Source of the DNA: an uncultured Candidatus Bathyarchaeia archaeon
GTDB lineage: Archaea; Thermoproteota; Bathyarchaeia; Bathyarchaeales; Bathycorpusculaceae
Direction of reading: 5' to 3'
NCBI GenBank assembly: GCA_964450845.1
Contig: CAYVGZ010000009.1
Location: 1-22,931 of the forward strand
Length of the DNA: 22,931 bases
The notes beneath the pieces were generated by a model that was not told where the DNA came from, ran no database searches, and saw nothing but the letters and a program-made list of their open reading frames with translations. The position numbers and the translations under genes are program-made. Below, in pieces: positions 4,027 through 14,453 of the stretch (position 1 is its first letter; each line of letters opens with the position of its first letter).

Positions 4027-5673
4027 GTGATAAATTTGAAGAACGCCCTTGCTAAAACAAAATCGCTACTAGCTTTAGCATTGCTTGTGCTCGTAGTTTT
4101 CATGGGGAGTCTAGAATTGAAAGTCAAGGCATATACCTTTTTTCAGGAGTACCAAGAGTACGTTCACAACTACTTGAATTTTGGAGATTTAGGAAATTGG
4201 ACGTATGTGGAGAAACCTATGTTTCCAGTGTTATTCAATACCTCTCAGATACAGATAGGTCAAAACTGGAGCGTAATATGTCCACTCAGAATGAATCGTA
4301 GTTACCATATTTATTGTTATGGCGAATGGGTAAACAACGGGTCAGACCCCAAAACGGATTATGACATTTATGTTTACAATCCCTTGGGCGAAATGGAAGG
4401 CTATCACACTGAATCTGCTGGGCTACCTGAGCACTTGGGAACAACTGTAGATGAAGCTTTCTTTGTGCCGAAATATTCGGGAAACTATACTTTCGTCATA
4501 AACAACGACCCTAAAGAAAGCAACGGTGCTGAACAGGCGACATTTATGGTAATTGAAAATGTTGAATGCAATGTTTGGCATGAGCACTATGTGAAAGGAA
4601 AGGACAATGATAGTTTGCCTGTTTTGAACACGAGTTGGGCTTACGAATTCTTGACTGAAAGCAAGCATATAGAAGTGTGGGTTAAGGTTCCAGAATCATT
4701 AGACATGTACGAAGCTAGGGTTTATTTAATGGTTGATTCTAAGTCAAAAGAGCGAACTGTTTTGAACGGGGTTCCATTGGCTTGGGAGCCTGGACTTTAC
4801 GCCGAGAGAGACAAAAGCTATGGCGGCTATAACCTGGAAAGCAAGGAATATCGGGGCGTAGCCTTTTCAAGCTGCGAATTCCCTGGGCAAGACATGTTCT
4901 TGAACTACACTTCTCCAAATAGTGGAAAAAGCCTTTATCATCTAGTTATTATAGGCGAAGTCGGCTCGGGAACAATAGAATTCCTAGTAAAAACGGAATT
5001 TGATAATACATATCTGAAACCTTTGACTGTTCCTGAGAGAGTGCATGCAGATAATGACACCCTTGTTGCTTATGTCTCAAATTCGACGGACTTGGAAGGC
5101 GCAACCTTGGAATATTCAACTAATGGCTGGATAAACTCGACTGTAATCGAAATGGAGATTTTAGACAATAGAATCTGCACAGCAACAATTCCAAGGCAAC
5201 CTGCCGGCACAATTGTCAACTATAGGGTCGAAGCAAATGACACTCTGAAAAATGTTCTTGTTGCCAACAAAACTTATCCAGTTAAGAACGAACTAATGCT
5301 CAATCTGACTCTGGCTCAAGAGGTCGTCACTCTAGGCGAAAACGTAACCGTCTTGGGCAACGCGACAACAGTGAATAGAACAGTTCCTATAACAATCTAT
5401 TTTAGCTCAACAAACGGCACCAAGCAAATAGTCTGCTACACGAACGCAAATGGCACTTTCAGTGCAAGCTTTAAGCCTGAAGTCCTTGGAATGTGGGAAG
5501 TACAAGCAAGGTTCGATGGAGATGTTTTTTTGTATGAAAATGTGAGCCAATGGGTTTCAGTTGAAGTTAGGGAGCCATCCATATTGGTGAAGTATTCGCT
5601 CTATATAGGTGGAGGAATAGGTGCAGCAATCGTAGTGATTGCTATTGTTTTCTGGAGAAGATCAAAAGAATAA
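4027..5673 (+). CDS. Secreted, C-terminally membrane-anchored surface glycoprotein of unknown function (beta-rich/Ig-like domains)
   Basis: GTG start, signal-peptide-like N-terminus, C-terminal TM helix plus WRRSKE basic tail, about 20 N-x-S/T sequons counted by eye. Confidence 0.8.
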   Translation: MINLKNALAKTKSLLALALLVLVVFMGSLELKVKAYTFFQEYQEYVHNYLNFGDLGNWTYVEKPMFPVLFNTSQIQIGQNWSVICPLRMNRSYHIYCYGEWVNNGSDPKTDYDIYVYNPLGEMEGYHTESAGLPEHLGTTVDEAFFVPKYSGNYTFVINNDPKESNGAEQATFMVIENVECNVWHEHYVKGKDNDSLPVLNTSWAYEFLTESKHIEVWVKVPESLDMYEARVYLMVDSKSKERTVLNGVPLAWEPGLYAERDKSYGGYNLESKEYRGVAFSSCEFPGQDMFLNYTSPNSGKSLYHLVIIGEVGSGTIEFLVKTEFDNTYLKPLTVPERVHADNDTLVAYVSNSTDLEGATLEYSTNGWINSTVIEMEILDNRICTATIPRQPAGTIVNYRVEANDTLKNVLVANKTYPVKNELMLNLTLAQEVVTLGENVTVLGNATTVNRTVPITIYFSSTNGTKQIVCYTNANGTFSASFKPEVLGMWEVQARFDGDVFLYENVSQWVSVEVREPSILVKYSLYIGGGIGAAIVVIAIVFWRRSKE

Positions 5674-5928
5674 CGGTTCTCTTTGTTTGTATGCGTGCAA
5701 CAGCGTATAGCCCCTCTATTTATAGGCAAATATGGTCCTGTTAGGAAAACTCTAACATCTATGGGACTCATTAAGACGACTTACTGCGGATACTAAACAG
5801 GATATTTTGTCATTAGAGAACCTTGGAAAATCTAAGAACATAAAACTTATAGCTGAACCTAAAGAACTAATAAGAATTGTCAAAGGTGAAAAGACATAGA
5901 GAAGTTAGATAAGAAAGTAGAATATGTT

Positions 5929-6078
5929 ATGGGAAGCAAAACTGACAGATGGCATTGGTGTAAGAATTGCACACAATACCCCATGTATGTCTACCAAAGA
6001 CGCACTGGTTCTAGACCTCGTTCTAACCTCTGTAAACAATGCAAAGCAAAAGAAGACAACAAAGATTGCACAGCATAA
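5929..6078 (+). CDS. Cys-rich microprotein (WHWCxxC...CxxC...C), putative zinc finger, 49 aa (not in ORF track)
   Basis: Manual translation MGSKTDRWHWCKNCTQYPMYVYQRRTGSRPRSNLCKQCKAKEDNKDCTA*. Two CxxC pairs plus His and a terminal Cys. The frame stays open upstream to 5890. Confidence 0.72.
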   Translation: MGSKTDRWHWCKNCTQYPMYVYQRRTGSRPRSNLCKQCKAKEDNKDCTA

Positions 6079-9674: not shown

Positions 9675-10394
9675 ATGAAAATTTGTGATGCCCACGTTCA
9701 TCTAGGAAAGTCAGGTCCTTGGCAACCATATGCCAATCCGACAATCTATGTGAATGAGCTCATTAGCCTCTTTGACAAATACAGCGTTGAAAAAGCAGTT
9801 GTTTTTCCAAACCCCAATGTAGGCGATGAATACCCCAAAATGAATAATTACATTGCAAATTGCGTAAATAAATATCCTAGGCGTTTTATCGGGTTTGGGC
9901 GTGTTGACCCGCGAAGAGAAGACGCTGTAAAAGAGTTAAAGCGTATAAAAAATGGTTTAGGCTTAACCGGGCTTAAGCTACATCCAATGGTGGAGTGCTT
10001 TAGGCCAGATCACCCGTTTTTCAGCAAGTTTTTCCAAAAAGTTAACGAATTAAGTCTTCCCACATTATTTCATTCGGGTGATGGCTTTTCATCAGTAGGG
10101 CTTATCTTAAAAATTGCTAAAAAATATCCAAAACTGCCCATAATTCTAGGTCATTTAAGGGAATCAGCCATCAATGCCTTAAAAGAATGCGAGAACGTTT
10201 ACGTTGAAACCTCTGGCACCTTACCTGAATTTATTGAATTCTCAGTGGACACAGACGAAGACAGGATACTGTTTGGTTCTGACGTTCCATATTATCGTTA
10301 TCCAACTCAAATAGCAATCGTTGAAGCTGCGGAAATTTCCCAAAAAGCTAAGAGAAAAATTTTCTTTGAGAACTTCCAGAAAATGTTTAGCTGA
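9675..10394 (+). CDS. Amidohydrolase family (Amidohydro_2-type) metal-dependent hydrolase
   Basis: DAHVH, KLHP, FHSG, GH and FGSD metal-ligand motifs of the TIM-barrel amidohydrolase superfamily; SD GGAGA. Confidence 0.88.
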   Translation: MKICDAHVHLGKSGPWQPYANPTIYVNELISLFDKYSVEKAVVFPNPNVGDEYPKMNNYIANCVNKYPRRFIGFGRVDPRREDAVKELKRIKNGLGLTGLKLHPMVECFRPDHPFFSKFFQKVNELSLPTLFHSGDGFSSVGLILKIAKKYPKLPIILGHLRESAINALKECENVYVETSGTLPEFIEFSVDTDEDRILFGSDVPYYRYPTQIAIVEAAEISQKAKRKIFFENFQKMFS

Positions 10395-10434
10395 AATAAA
10401 GGGGATTGACACCTTAATTTAATGGAGTAGAATC

Positions 10435-11835
10435 ATGGCTCTTAAATGTGTTAAATGTGGTCTAGAATTTCCATTGTTTCCTCCACAACACAAATGTGAA
10501 AGGTGTGGAGGAGCTTTAGAATACGAGCTTGATTTGCAAAAAGATAGTAAAATTAAATTTTCGGGTCAGATGCGCTTTTGGAGGTATAAACCTTTACTAC
10601 CGCCAGTAAAACATTTAATAAGCCTAGGCGAAGGAGGAACTCGGCTTCACAAGGCGGAAAGACTTGCTAAGACTATGGGCTTAACGGATTTGTATCTAAA
10701 GGATGAAACCCGAAACCCCACAAACTCCTATAGGGACCGTGCAGCCGCTCTCTTAACATCAAATGCTATGGACTTTCAATATGACACGTTAATCTGTGCG
10801 ACAAATGGAAATTTGGGCGCTTCTCTCGCTGCTTATTCTGCAAAGGCTGGGTTAACCTGCCATGTGATTGTGCCAAAGATTGTTGATGTTGGAAAACTGG
10901 CTCAAATGCTTGCATATGATGCTGCTATTGAAGAGTCTGGCGAGATTCTTGACGATTCCATACGCAAGGCTAACGCTCTGGCGAAGGAAACAGGTTGGTA
11001 TCAAGCAACTGCAGAGCTAAATCCTCTTGCAATTGAAGCGCAGAAAACAATTTCATATGAGGTAAGTGAACAGTTTGGTGTTCCAGAATGGTTTGTGGTT
11101 CCAATGGGAAGTGGCGGAACCATTTATTCTATTTGGAAGGGCTTCCAAGAGCTTGAGCAGCTTGGGATAACGAACTCTCTGCCAAAAATGGTTGGCGTTC
11201 AACCAGAAGGATGCGCATCCATAGCTAAAACATTCATGGGAGGACGCTCCAAATTGACAAAAACGCTGAACCCCTCCACTCATGCGCTTGCTGTTTTGGT
11301 GGCGGAACCGCTACAAGGTGAATTAGCAATAAAAGCATTAAAGGAATCGAGTGGTTTGGCTTTGACTGTTTCTGATTCAGAAATTTTTGCAGCGGAGCTT
11401 CAGATAGCCAAACTTGAAGGAATGTTTGCAGAACCAGCAAGTTCAGCCACAATCGCTGCTTTAAAAAAACTTGTGGCAGAAGGAAAAATGCGTAAGCACG
11501 ACAGCGTTGTATGCCTCATTACAGGAAGCGGGCTCAAAGCCACGGATGTGCTTCAAGGCTTAACCAAAAAGCAAAAAACGGCAGGCGTAGGCTTAGAGTT
11601 AAGCACAAAAGAGAAAATACTGCGAATCCTAAGCAAAAGAGACACATATGGCTATGATCTGTGGAAAAAACTCGGAAAAACCATGACCAGAGCCGCCATA
11701 TACCAACACTTGAATGAGCTTTCGGAAAAAGGATTAATTGCAGGCTACACAAAAAATGAGAGAAAATTCTTCAAGGTCACAGAACGTGGAAAAAGAGCTT
11801 TGCATGCGATTGAAGATTTGAAGCTTTTAATGTAA
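10435..11835 (+). CDS. Threonine-synthase-like fold-type II PLP domain (Schiff-base Lys replaced by Arg) with N-terminal Zn ribbon and C-terminal PadR-like winged HTH
   Basis: CVKC/CERC ribbon; KDETRNPTNSYRDR where ThrC has SFKDR; NGN, PMGSGG and TGSGLK retained; the C-terminus ILRIL...YGYDLWK...IYQHLNEL...GLI...RKFFKVTERG is a wHTH. Confidence 0.85.
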   Translation: MALKCVKCGLEFPLFPPQHKCERCGGALEYELDLQKDSKIKFSGQMRFWRYKPLLPPVKHLISLGEGGTRLHKAERLAKTMGLTDLYLKDETRNPTNSYRDRAAALLTSNAMDFQYDTLICATNGNLGASLAAYSAKAGLTCHVIVPKIVDVGKLAQMLAYDAAIEESGEILDDSIRKANALAKETGWYQATAELNPLAIEAQKTISYEVSEQFGVPEWFVVPMGSGGTIYSIWKGFQELEQLGITNSLPKMVGVQPEGCASIAKTFMGGRSKLTKTLNPSTHALAVLVAEPLQGELAIKALKESSGLALTVSDSEIFAAELQIAKLEGMFAEPASSATIAALKKLVAEGKMRKHDSVVCLITGSGLKATDVLQGLTKKQKTAGVGLELSTKEKILRILSKRDTYGYDLWKKLGKTMTRAAIYQHLNELSEKGLIAGYTKNERKFFKVTERGKRALHAIEDLKLLM

Positions 11836-11874
11836 TTTGAATGTTATTTCTCTCATTTAAAGGCGATAAATTAA

Positions 11875-11900
11875 AATAGTATAGTTATAACTAAACTATT
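11875..11900. promoter_or_regulatory. 26-bp near-perfect palindrome (candidate operator) over the ECF S-component promoter
   Basis: AATAGTATAGTTA|TAACTAAACTATT, 12 of 13 pairs, ending 16 nt before ATG11917. Confidence 0.6.
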
Positions 11901-11916
11901 CTCTGGAGGGAGCTGC

Positions 11917-12672
11917 ATGCTGTCTTCAAAAACTATGATGAAGAGTCCCATTCAGCTTGGAGTTACCGGTGTTTTTACGGCTCTCGTATGTGTGGTAACC
12001 ATGATTTTTTCAATTTACGTGCCAAGCACGAGAGGATTCTTTAACGTTGGCGAAACCATGGTGTATATAACGGCGTTGCTTTTTGGCCCATTTGTAGGCG
12101 CTTTCGCCGGTGGCGTGGGTTCAATGTTTGCCGATGTGCTTCTCGGCTACTACTACTTCGCACCAGCAACTTTGGTCATTAAAGCATTAGAAGGAGGATT
12201 GGTAGGTTTCTTAAGCCGCAAAAAACCTCTTTTCTCTAAGTATCACACAAGGCGCGAATGGAAAATCTTTACTCTTGAGATTGGAGTGCTTGTCGGAGCT
12301 CTAGTGAGCCTTATAGGTTTCCTGTACTACAGCGGCATCGTGGAATTATACTCTGGCATTCCTCCACCAGAAAGTCCCACATCGACAATTTTTATTCCAA
12401 TGGAATTCTGGCTGGGTTTGGGTGCTTTTGTTGCATTATTGATAGCAGTCATAGGCTTTGTTTCTGAACCAGAAATCGGATGGACGGTTATCTCCATAAT
12501 TTTTGGAGGGTTGCTGATGGTTTTTGGCTATTTTCTTTACGAACAGTTTTTCCTCGGAGTTTTGGCGGTCGCTGAAGTTCCTATAAACATCGGACAAATG
12601 ACAGTTGGACTAATCGTAGCAACACCAATAGTAAAAATCATTCAGCGTGCTTTGCCACAACTTAAAAGCTAG
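11917..12672 (+). CDS. ECF transporter substrate-specific S component (COG4720/HmpT-PdxU2-like) with extra membrane hairpin
   Basis: GFFNVGE...LLFGP..GA..GGVGS..AD...GY...AP.T..IK..EG signature and C-terminal GYF.YE...N..Q; SD GGAGGG. Confidence 0.85.
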   Translation: MLSSKTMMKSPIQLGVTGVFTALVCVVTMIFSIYVPSTRGFFNVGETMVYITALLFGPFVGAFAGGVGSMFADVLLGYYYFAPATLVIKALEGGLVGFLSRKKPLFSKYHTRREWKIFTLEIGVLVGALVSLIGFLYYSGIVELYSGIPPPESPTSTIFIPMEFWLGLGAFVALLIAVIGFVSEPEIGWTVISIIFGGLLMVFGYFLYEQFFLGVLAVAEVPINIGQMTVGLIVATPIVKIIQRALPQLKS

Positions 12673-12705
12673 CTATCTTTAAAACTCTCCTCAGAGGGCA
12701 GAAAA

Positions 12706-13740
12706 ATGAAGTTGCCATTAGGAAAAATCCCAATAGAAATTTTGAGGAATGTCATTTTCCAAAACCTAGGTTCAAAACGCAACGAAGTTGCTTTAGGCCC
12801 TTCTGCAGGATTTGACGGTGCAGTCATAAACGTTGGAAACAAGTCCTTAATTGTCTCCACGGATCCCATTACAGGAGCAATGGAGCAAATTGGCTGGCTT
12901 GCCGTAAACATTAATGCAAACGACATCGCCACCTTTGGTGTCGAACCAGCTTTCTTCCTTTCATGCATTTTGCTTCCTGAAAAAGAGAATAGGCAAATGG
13001 TTGAAACAATATCTGTCCAAATGGACAAAGCTGCTAAAAAATTGGGCATGGCTATTGTTGGAGGGCACTGCGAAGTAACTCCTGGACTGACTAACCCGAT
13101 AGTTGTAGGCTGCACAATGGGCTTAACAGAAAAAGGAAACTACGTGACAGCAGGAGGAGCTAAACTAGGAGACAAGCTTATATTAACAAAAAGCGCTGGA
13201 ATCGAAGGAACCGCAATTCTCGCGGCAGACAGAGAAGAGCAGTTAAAGAAGGCATTAAAGCCTAAAATGTTGCAGAATGCCAAAAAATTCTATGACAAAA
13301 TAAGCGTCGTTAAAGATGCACTTACAGCTTTCAAGACAGGCGGCGTAACTGCTATGCACGATCTGACAGAAGGAGGTGTAAGCGGGGGAATCCACGAAAT
13401 GGCAGACGCATCAAACCTAAGCGTAAAAATATTTGAAGAAAAAATCCGTATTCAACCAGAAACCAGCAAAATATGTGAATTTTTTCACATTGATCCCTTG
13501 CAACTCATTAGCTCAGGAGCGCTGCTCATTTCTGCTAAGCCAGAATTTGCAGACAGGATTATTGGAGAATTGGAGCAGAAGCAGATTCATGCTTCTATAA
13601 TCGGCGAATTTTTGGAGAAATCGCGTCGTCGCTTGATCGTAAGGGAAGACGGTGAAACTCGAGCTTTACCTAGACCAGTATCTGATCATCTTTGGCTTGC
13701 CCTTCATGGGGAATTTCCAGAATTTTTGTTCAAAACCTGA
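12706..13740 (+). CDS. AIR synthase (PurM)-fold ATP-dependent protein, PurM-like subgroup of unknown function
   Basis: G.D.AV, STDPIT, NDIA..G..P, GGHCE and MHDLTEGG motifs. No C-terminal PRIC cysteine, so not HypE. Confidence 0.85.
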   Translation: MKLPLGKIPIEILRNVIFQNLGSKRNEVALGPSAGFDGAVINVGNKSLIVSTDPITGAMEQIGWLAVNINANDIATFGVEPAFFLSCILLPEKENRQMVETISVQMDKAAKKLGMAIVGGHCEVTPGLTNPIVVGCTMGLTEKGNYVTAGGAKLGDKLILTKSAGIEGTAILAADREEQLKKALKPKMLQNAKKFYDKISVVKDALTAFKTGGVTAMHDLTEGGVSGGIHEMADASNLSVKIFEEKIRIQPETSKICEFFHIDPLQLISSGALLISAKPEFADRIIGELEQKQIHASIIGEFLEKSRRRLIVREDGETRALPRPVSDHLWLALHGEFPEFLFKT

Positions 13741-14453
13741 AGGAACCAATATAATATGAAAAATGGATAATAAAAGACGTATTTCGGAATATGTGAATAA
13801 GCCAAACCGCATCTCATTTCTAGGGAAGCCAGCGAAATGCTTTCCCTTAGAGTCCAGTCCGCACTTGGCCTAAAATGCAGGCAGTAAATGTCATCGCCTA
13901 CTACAACTTTGTAGCCCTTCTTTTTGATCCAGTTTGTGATATACGCATCTTCATAAGCATGTAATCGCTCTGGAATTCTAATATCCTTTACGAGTTCGTG
14001 GCGGATCAAGGTGTCATGCATACCACCACGAAGGTTGAAACATTCTCTTGCAATAAGAAGGAGTGATCTTAAAAATAGCTTGTTTTTAACGTTTGGGATG
14101 ACATCGATGTTTAATCCCCAAAGCGCCCCTAATTCTTTATCAATGTATTTTTCGGCTTTCTCAAACCAGCCCTCACAAAGAATAACGTCGCTGTCTACAA
14201 ACATAAACCACTCTGTTGTTACCTCTTCTATACCCCTTTCTCTCGCTTTAGCCCTTGAACCTTTTTCCGAAATAATTGTAACGTTCCCATATTTTCTGTT
14301 AAATTCATTCAAAATTTTCAATGTGTTGTCAGTTGAGAACCCATCAACAACTATTAAACGTTTAACAGGCACATTTTCATAAATTGATCTTAGGCTTTTA
14401 AATAGCAAATGCTCACTGTTCTTTGTAAGCATAACAACATCTATTGGTTCCAA
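13704..14453 (-). CDS. Glycosyltransferase family 2 (GT-A), soluble type
   Basis: IVVDGFSTDNT and FVDSD (DxD) motifs; TTG start with SD GGAGAGG. Confidence 0.88.
   Translation of the reverse strand: MEPIDVVMLTKNSEHLLFKSLRSIYENVPVKRLIVVDGFSTDNTLKILNEFNRKYGNVTIISEKGSRAKARERGIEEVTTEWFMFVDSDVILCEGWFEKAEKYIDKELGALWGLNIDVIPNVKNKLFLRSLLLIARECFNLRGGMHDTLIRHELVKDIRIPERLHAYEDAYITNWIKKKGYKVVVGDDIYCLHFRPSADWTLRESISLASLEMRCGLAYSHIPKYVFYYPFFILYWFLQVLNKNSGNSP

Follow-up and report, generated by a model that had tools for sequence, protein, structure and literature searches.

Within a 22,931-nucleotide (nt) stretch of DNA from an uncultured Candidatus Bathyarchaeia archaeon (GenBank assembly GCA_964450845.1, contig CAYVGZ010000009.1; hereafter the window), we identified a gene set in which a regulator with a threonine-synthase fold is predicted to act through a palindrome on the genes for the S component of an energy-coupling factor (ECF) transporter and for an enzyme of the PurM fold, referred to below as PurM-like. 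Genome comparison indicates that the regulator, its putative operator, and their targets form a real and coherent uptake regulon for vitamin B6 with an undescribed sensor-regulator, and we hold with moderate confidence that the whole serves to take up and salvage vitamin B6 and is controlled by a repressor of its own. An earlier note, made from the DNA letters alone, had proposed a vitamin-uptake unit in which a regulator of pyridoxal 5'-phosphate (PLP)-dependent enzyme fold acts through the palindrome, a proposal that is supported by the co-occurrence of regulator, operator, and S gene described below. The best DNA matches of the window are hot-spring metagenomes, and a hot spring is its likely source; the matching data sets listed were all DNA metagenomes, with no RNA set among them.

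The palindrome is an inverted repeat in which 12 of 13 pairs match, and it ends 16 nt 5' of the ATG of the S-component gene, a member of PF07155. The predicted operator has the consensus TAGTATAGTT-NN-AACTATACTA; it abuts the TATA box of this gene and extends from there to about the expected transcription start, a position that, judging from this geometry, would be that of an archaeal repressor. Its distribution was examined by whole-genome pattern searches, allowing up to 3 mismatches and using the reversed pattern as a control, in genomes from a set of 41 relatives of the order (designated by G-numbers, with G000 being the window's own genome). In each of the 21 genomes that encode the full-length regulator, the operator was present and stood every time immediately 5' of a PF07155 S gene; the reversed control had no match in these genomes. 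The operator was found in none of 10 regulator-less relatives (92-100% complete), among which the control pattern matched once, in G012. A separate set of 80 public-genome loci gave the operator in six of six loci with the regulator and in none of the other 74. Further, the layout in which a transcription factor B recognition element (BRE) and a TATA box precede the operator is kept at orthologous regulator-bearing loci, and loci without the regulator lack the site. In G038 the regulator sits elsewhere, as does the PurM-like gene in G040, G034, G033, and G027, and in all five the operator stays at the S gene. The 26-bp palindrome is no chance feature, because its 22-bp core occurs once in the window's genome and because of its presence in 21 of 21 regulator-bearing relatives versus 0 of 10 without the regulator; the link between regulator, operator, and S gene is one shown by comparative genomics. 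Two public Bathyarchaeia genomes have two overlapping copies of the site, offset by 17 nt, between the regulator and the S gene (L053:5377-5415 and L058:5403-5441), which is possibly a double operator.

In Pfam searches, the regulator matched PALP (247 bits) and, at residues 395-457, PadR (PF03551; 43.2 bits, cut-off 27). Alignment with solved threonine synthases revealed that (i) their PLP motif S-F-K-D-R reads S-Y-R-D-R in the regulator, with Arg100 in place of the lysine, and (ii) the arginine of the N-P-x-R-I-E-G-Q-K-T motif, which binds the substrate phosphate in ThrC structures, is replaced by an alanine, while (iii) the glycine loop GSGGT and the G-N of the cofactor pocket are retained. 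The lysine-to-arginine change was seen in nine of nine aligned orthologs, the PadR tail being nearly invariant, and a separate ThrC homolog that has the lysine (motif N-P-T-G-S-F-K-D-R-G) is encoded elsewhere in the genome. Judged by its sequence, the regulator is a pseudoenzyme, namely a dead threonine synthase fused to a PadR winged helix. It scores 196.7 bits against the NCBIfam model TIGR00260 (thrC), above the cut-off of 167.1, and 408.6 bits against PRK05638, below the cut-off of 421. The thrC score probably reflects fold rather than catalysis, and passing this cut-off explains the universal label "threonine synthase", a name that the databases give the protein throughout (1,743 scored relatives, with a PadR domain in all 120 listed). 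Full-length copies are encoded in 21 of the 41 genomes; the genomes without the regulator include G002, which belongs to the same genus. A divergent 507-residue paralog (317 bits to PRK05638) lies in G016 (G016:C6:28482-30506), back to back with another short S component, and in G016 the S gene that is paired with the PurM-like gene has a different palindrome in front of it, ATAGTATAGTCAATCTAGACTAT (L025, ~9790-9830); the two may constitute a variant regulator-operator pair.

Our search of the literature accessible to us found no description of a ThrC-PadR regulator or of archaeal B6 sensing or regulation. The nearest likeness is to bacterial regulators of the PdxR/MocR/GabR type, which join a DNA-binding winged helix to a PLP-fold domain responsive to B6 status and control genes for B6 synthesis or uptake, including PdxU/PdxU2-type S components. 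MocR proteins, however, combine an N-terminal GntR-type winged helix-turn-helix with an aminotransferase-like domain of fold type I in which the lysine is retained, whereas the present regulator is archaeal and has an N-terminal zinc ribbon, a fold-type II domain with arginine in place of the lysine, and a C-terminal PadR winged helix-turn-helix; it would thus be a functional analog of MocR/PdxR and no member of that family. One report (PMC8305020) cites two archaeal enzyme-fold sensors that act at palindromes, ThiR (a helix-turn-helix (HTH) with a ThiN-like domain, for thiamine) and RbkR (an HTH with a CTP-dependent riboflavin kinase). They share with our regulator the reuse of a biosynthetic-enzyme fold as the ligand sensor of a one-component regulator at promoters for vitamin synthesis or transport, and they differ from it in sensor fold, DNA-binding domain, operator, and vitamin.

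The identity of the vitamin is suggested by two relatives. PdxS was found in only 2 of the 41 genomes, G006 and G007. In G006, a second operator-type site, TATTAAAGTTAGAACTTTACTA, lies ~13 nt before the pdxS ATG, with pdxT next and with the same BRE/TATA-operator layout, and in G007 the orthologous pdxS-pdxT promoter carries the site TATTCAAGTTAGAACTTTACTA, which has 4 mismatches and was therefore missed by the 3-mismatch search. Comparative genomics thereby shows pdxS and pdxT as further targets of the regulator. The earlier note had named B6 and a thiamine pyrimidine as the leading ligand guesses; B6 is now favored, given that both relatives with pdxS-pdxT carry this kind of operator at the promoter of those genes, and a thiamine role is kept as a rival reading. 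A survey of PLP salvage (PMC9997740) reports that archaea use the PdxS/T route only and that alternative B6 kinases are still to be found, and it names PdxU and PdxU2/HmpT (PF07155) in its very short list of known B6 transporters. Our PF08543 search found no standalone PdxK-type kinase in any of the 41 genomes: strong matches occurred only as ThiD-ThiN (ThiDN) fusions, in 16 genomes, and other matches were weak and fell on sugar-kinase-/ribokinase-like or Nnr-like open reading frames (ORFs). A 308-residue PfkB-like protein was rejected as a hidden PdxK, since it resembles ribokinase and adenosine kinase. As for other vitamins in the window's genome, riboflavin was set aside as a substrate since another S component adjoins an HTH-riboflavin-kinase gene there and so covers it, and thiamine precursors are covered by a CytX-ThiDN-ThiW cluster together with ThiL.

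The S component scores 100.5 bits against PF07155 (ECF-ribofla_trS; cut-off 26.7). Its sole solved relative is HmpT/PdxU2 of Lactobacillus brevis (PDB 4HZU, chain S; E 1e-7), which is likewise a PF07155/COG4720 protein and a group II S component that uses a shared EcfAA'T module. HmpT/PdxU2 co-purifies with pyridoxamine, its identified bound substrate (PMC4860826). The window protein differs in its length of 251 residues and its insertion of ~70 residues, only residues 16-100 being aligned. An energizing EcfA-EcfA'-EcfT operon lies on contig C4 of the window's genome, with CbiQ/EcfT (112 bits) after two ABC ATPase genes, and EcfT was found in 40 of 41 relatives. S components beside a PurM-like gene come in a long form, to which the window's belongs (~250 residues, including the insertion, which looks like two extra membrane helices), and a short form (~175-195 residues; e.g., L013:7438-7968), and both forms occur with and without the regulator. 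Elsewhere in the window's genome (contig C11, L143:49-2654), another PF07155-type S component (256 residues) is followed by a GHMP-family kinase (310 residues), so that here, too, an S component and a kinase are paired; this pair is divergent from a 229-residue RbkR-like protein with a CTP-dependent riboflavin-kinase domain and an N-terminal extension of ~100 residues.

The PurM-like protein scores 65.8 bits against AIRS and 89.9 bits against AIRS_C, and it shares this two-domain fold with HypE and with ThiL, a vitamin-pathway kinase. It was rejected as a HypE (130 bits versus a cut-off of 251.6, and no C-terminal cysteine) and as a ThiL (99 bits versus 184); since a true HypE (contig C43, 371 bits) and a true ThiL (contig C58, 272 bits) are both encoded elsewhere in the genome, it is neither of the two, and it forms a separate clade. 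The databases call it only "AIR synthase family protein", in agreement with the remark in the earlier note that this subgroup has no assigned function. Its family is large (857 representative clusters at E < 1e-30, in many archaeal and bacterial phyla), and 30 of its members share invariant Asp, His, and Glu positions, as expected of an active ATP-dependent enzyme. Orthologs are present in 38 of the 41 genomes, the three without one being 58-64% complete, and in 29 of the 38 the gene adjoins the S gene (26 on the same strand and 3 divergent), an adjacency that spans several GTDB families with usual gaps of 20-50 nt on the same strand. We suggest that the protein is a B6-vitamer kinase, such that import would be followed by ATP-dependent activation of the vitamer; this is the most economical proposal because a B6-type importer is adjacent, the operator is of B6 type, and the order lacks PdxS, save for the two genomes named above, and PdxK. 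The reaction proposed here is the one by which PdxK, PdxY, and ThiD2 phosphorylate B6 vitamers with ATP during salvage, but these kinases have a ribokinase-like fold (PF08543) that is unrelated to the PurM fold.

Taken together, these features suggest the following course of events. When B6, most likely as reversibly bound PLP, fills the pocket of the regulator, its dimer would bind the palindrome at the S-component promoter and transcription would be blocked. The PdxU2/HmpT-like S component would import a B6 vitamer with the genome's single shared EcfAA'T module, and the PurM-fold gene, which lies 33 nt downstream of the S-component gene and would be co-transcribed with it, would supply an enzyme that uses ATP to phosphorylate the vitamer taken up. 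Four parts of this scheme are predictions: that the effector is PLP, that control is by repression, that the transporter's substrate is a B6 vitamer, and that the enzyme is a kinase.

Several observations weigh against the B6 assignment. The related genomes are kin, so that counts across the 41 overstate independence. The similarity of the S component to HmpT is weak (35 bits), and PF07155 also contains riboflavin transporters. Every pathway link found for relatives of the PurM-like protein is to thiamine (ThiN, ThiE, ThiT, and a CytX-like permease); no B6 gene was fused or adjacent among the family members examined, and the data equally allow a thiamine role for the window's branch. We know of no PurM-superfamily enzyme that phosphorylates an alcohol. 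At least five genomes have a PurM-like gene that is not linked to the S gene and at which a search allowing 3 mismatches gave no operator. Finally, G014 (contig C32, L050:4257-6134) has a second perfect 22-bp operator ~8 nt before the gene for a distant S-component paralog, a 301-residue PF07155 protein with an N-terminal extension, with a bona fide ThiL (238 bits) encoded 64 nt downstream, and a pure B6 model leaves this operator unexplained.

These points lead to the alternative that survives best, although we consider it unlikely: a thiamine unit, in which the S component would import thiamine or its pyrimidine precursor hydroxymethylpyrimidine (HMP), the PurM-fold enzyme would be a kinase of thiamine, HMP or its phosphate (HMP-P), or hydroxyethylthiazole related to ThiL, and the regulator would sense a thiamine phosphate or HMP-P, which resembles PLP. 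The operator of G014 in front of an S component and ThiL speaks for it, as do ThiL being the nearest characterized kinase of the fold and the first prediction of HmpT as an HMP importer (PMC4860826). ThiN is adjacent or fused to PurM-like relatives (Table 1) in Methanothrix, Methanocrinis, Methanospirillum, Thermofilum, Thermoplasmatota, Methanomassiliicoccales, and a bacterium, and a CytX-like permease lies 5' of a PurM-like relative in a Nitrososphaeria locus. Further, Bathyarchaeia have a second PurM-fold paralog, ~30-35% identical to the window's, which is nearly confined to genomes that lack ThiDN; it sits beside ThiE in G030, and in 16 of 17 genomes its neighbor is ThiT, the thiamine S component. 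The usual order there is ThiT, a KaiC-like ATPase, and the paralog (for instance in G010, L131:3734-6002, with ThiT at 166 bits against PF09515, an ATPase of 236 residues, and the paralog at 4989-6002; likewise in L132-L137, L139, and L140), and this operon is a candidate module for thiamine uptake and phosphorylation. Also in favor of a thiamine role, a search for ThiM in the 41 genomes and in the window's own gave nothing but weak matches on Nnr-like ORFs, which leaves the thiazole kinase step without an assigned gene.

Against a thiamine unit, operators of this type are present at the pdxS-pdxT promoters, whereas none was found at the ThiT operons, and no TPP (thiamine pyrophosphate) or other riboswitch was found near 25 bacterial PurM-like homologs. 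Other genes already provide for thiamine: most genomes that lack ThiDN have ThiT, and the window's genome has CytX, ThiW, and ThiDN, which form a cluster on contig C54 (L035:3148-6979: the HMP permease CytX, the ThiD-ThiN fusion, and the thiazole S component ThiW). The PurM-like gene is present regardless of a thiamine-phosphate synthase (ThiN in 16 of 41 genomes, ThiE in 1, and neither in 24), which excludes a kinase of the precursors HMP or thiazole as its general role. Nor can the relatives in the ThiN-linked archaea be substitutes for ThiL or ThiD, as those genomes also carry both in canonical form. In a quick maximum-likelihood tree of the family (IQ-TREE, with Shimodaira-Hasegawa-like approximate likelihood ratio test (SH-aLRT) support), the ThiN-, ThiE-, and ThiT-linked members fall in one clade (support 98) and the window's S-linked Bathyarchaeia proteins in another (98), with a third, Thermoproteota clade mixing ThiN, NCS1 permease, and PF07155 neighbors. 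By analogy with ThiD and PdxK, we read the branches as serving different vitamins: the PdxK/PdxY/ThiD2 family splits into B6-specific and thiamine-pyrimidine-specific branches, and the PurM-like family may do likewise.

It is also conceivable, though we regard it as quite improbable, that the regulator and S component form a B6 unit while the PurM-fold protein does some other ATP-dependent job, such as cofactor repair or the activation of an amide or carbonyl as in PurM/HypE, its place beside the S gene being an inherited order. The top family score of the protein, to the non-kinase HypE, would fit such a job, as would the wide spread of the family and the unlinked, operator-less copies in several families of the order. 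The earlier note had asked whether the neighborhood is conserved; the pairing with the S gene recurs across the order as given above, but outside Bathyarchaeia the neighbors are heterogeneous, and a tally of 57 flanking proteins there yielded no recurrent partner. The gene contexts of three distant homologs were uninformative. On the other side stand the adjacency to the S gene itself, mostly at short gaps on the same strand and in several families, and the sister paralog paired with ThiT, which means that the pairing of an S component with a PurM-fold enzyme recurs. Fusions with ThiN and with a HAD phosphatase (P0169) further point to small phosphorylated metabolites; a fusion of NYN and PurM-like domains (P0176) was also seen.

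Least of all do we expect the 466-residue protein to be a working threonine synthase with a moonlighting DNA-binding tail, in a unit for amino-acid metabolism: its TIGR00260 score and the agreement of all database names would suit this, but the Schiff-base lysine is arginine in all aligned orthologs, the substrate-phosphate arginine is gone, the gene is missing from about half of the related genomes, G002 included, another ThrC homolog in the same genome bears the lysine, and the regulator's targets are a vitamin-type transporter and pdxST.

Table 1. Features of the locus, with their positions in the window, and related loci that link PurM-like genes to ThiN.
Feature	Position	Strand	Basis
Amidohydro_2 (PF04909) metal-dependent hydrolase/decarboxylase-like protein, 239 residues	9675-10394	+	Pfam
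Regulator, 466 residues: zinc ribbon, threonine-synthase-fold pseudoenzyme domain (predicted), and PadR-type winged helix	10435-11835	+	Pfam, alignment
TATA-like, A/T-rich element (AAATTAAAATA region) following a purine-rich BRE-like stretch; putative core promoter for the S-component gene	11866-11878	+	Sequence reading
Putative operator, 26-bp palindrome; 22-bp core at 11877-11898, TAGTATAGTTATAACTAAACTA	11875-11900	strandless	Inverted repeat
ECF-type S component (PF07155/COG4720), 251 residues, putative B6-vitamer importer	11917-12672	+	Pfam
PurM/AIR-synthase-superfamily enzyme ("paralog 1"), 344 residues, candidate ATP-dependent vitamer kinase	12706-13740	+	Pfam
ThiN-PurM-like fusions in related loci	L099:5347-7029; L122:5392-7029; P0249		
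Adjacent ThiN and PurM-like genes in related loci	L098; L110; L115; L082		

Returning to the B6 reading, we note that genome sequences by themselves reveal the regulator, the operator, and the targets (the importer and pdxST), and that many public "threonine synthase" entries would be re-annotated as regulators. With PdxS in so few genomes, one would predict B6 auxotrophy for a large, uncultured archaeal group that is abundant worldwide, a point of relevance to its cultivation and to the cross-feeding of vitamins in sediments and hot springs. Should the kinase proposal hold, the PurM-fold enzyme would be a non-orthologous replacement of PdxK/PdxY; the locus names a concrete candidate for the missing B6 kinase and, by analogy, candidates for the missing archaeal thiamine salvage kinases. 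We put forward more tentatively, as a possibility, a broader reading in which (i) the PurM-fold protein would be the first kinase of a B6 vitamer (pyridoxal, pyridoxamine, or pyridoxine) with a fold other than that of ribokinase, (ii) the ThiT-, ThiN-, and ThiE-linked sister clade would comprise the as yet unidentified archaeal thiamine or thiazole kinases, and (iii) all of these would be governed in Bathyarchaeia by a lysine-less PLP sensor of threonine-synthase fold. If this is true, PurM-fold kinases of vitamins, each coupled to an ECF S component, would make up a family that fills the gap that surveys list as an alternative B6 kinase, and the sensor would be the first B6 regulator described in archaea.

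The earlier note had also taken the locus for a single four-gene regulon with a hydrolysis step. Its description of four co-oriented plus-strand genes, separated by gaps of 40, 81, and 33 nt and with a palindrome before the transporter, agrees with the ORF coordinates and with the inverted repeat. The regulon itself is smaller: the operator lies 3' of the amidohydrolase and regulator genes and can therefore control only the S-component and PurM-like genes, and across the comparison set the amidohydrolase (8 of 41) and the regulator (21 of 41) are both of limited occurrence. A hydrolysis step is likewise not supported. The amidohydrolase scores 92.2 bits against Amidohydro_2 (cut-off 26.4), and its nearest solved relatives are aromatic-acid decarboxylases of the ACMSD type, such as LigW (E 2e-13). 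Its gene is directly upstream of the S/PurM pair in six of those eight genomes and in three further public loci, standing in the regulator's place at most such loci; among the cases seen, the window alone combines the two. The amidohydrolase is a sporadic accessory neighbor outside the operator's reach and no core member, with a functional tie to the B6 unit being possible.

At the far end of the locus, the 3' end of the PurM-like ORF (13704-13740) overlaps a convergent GT2 glycosyltransferase ORF (13704-14453, minus strand) by 37 nt. Orthologs of the PurM-like protein align only to approximately residue 334, and its final ~10 residues may be lineage-specific.

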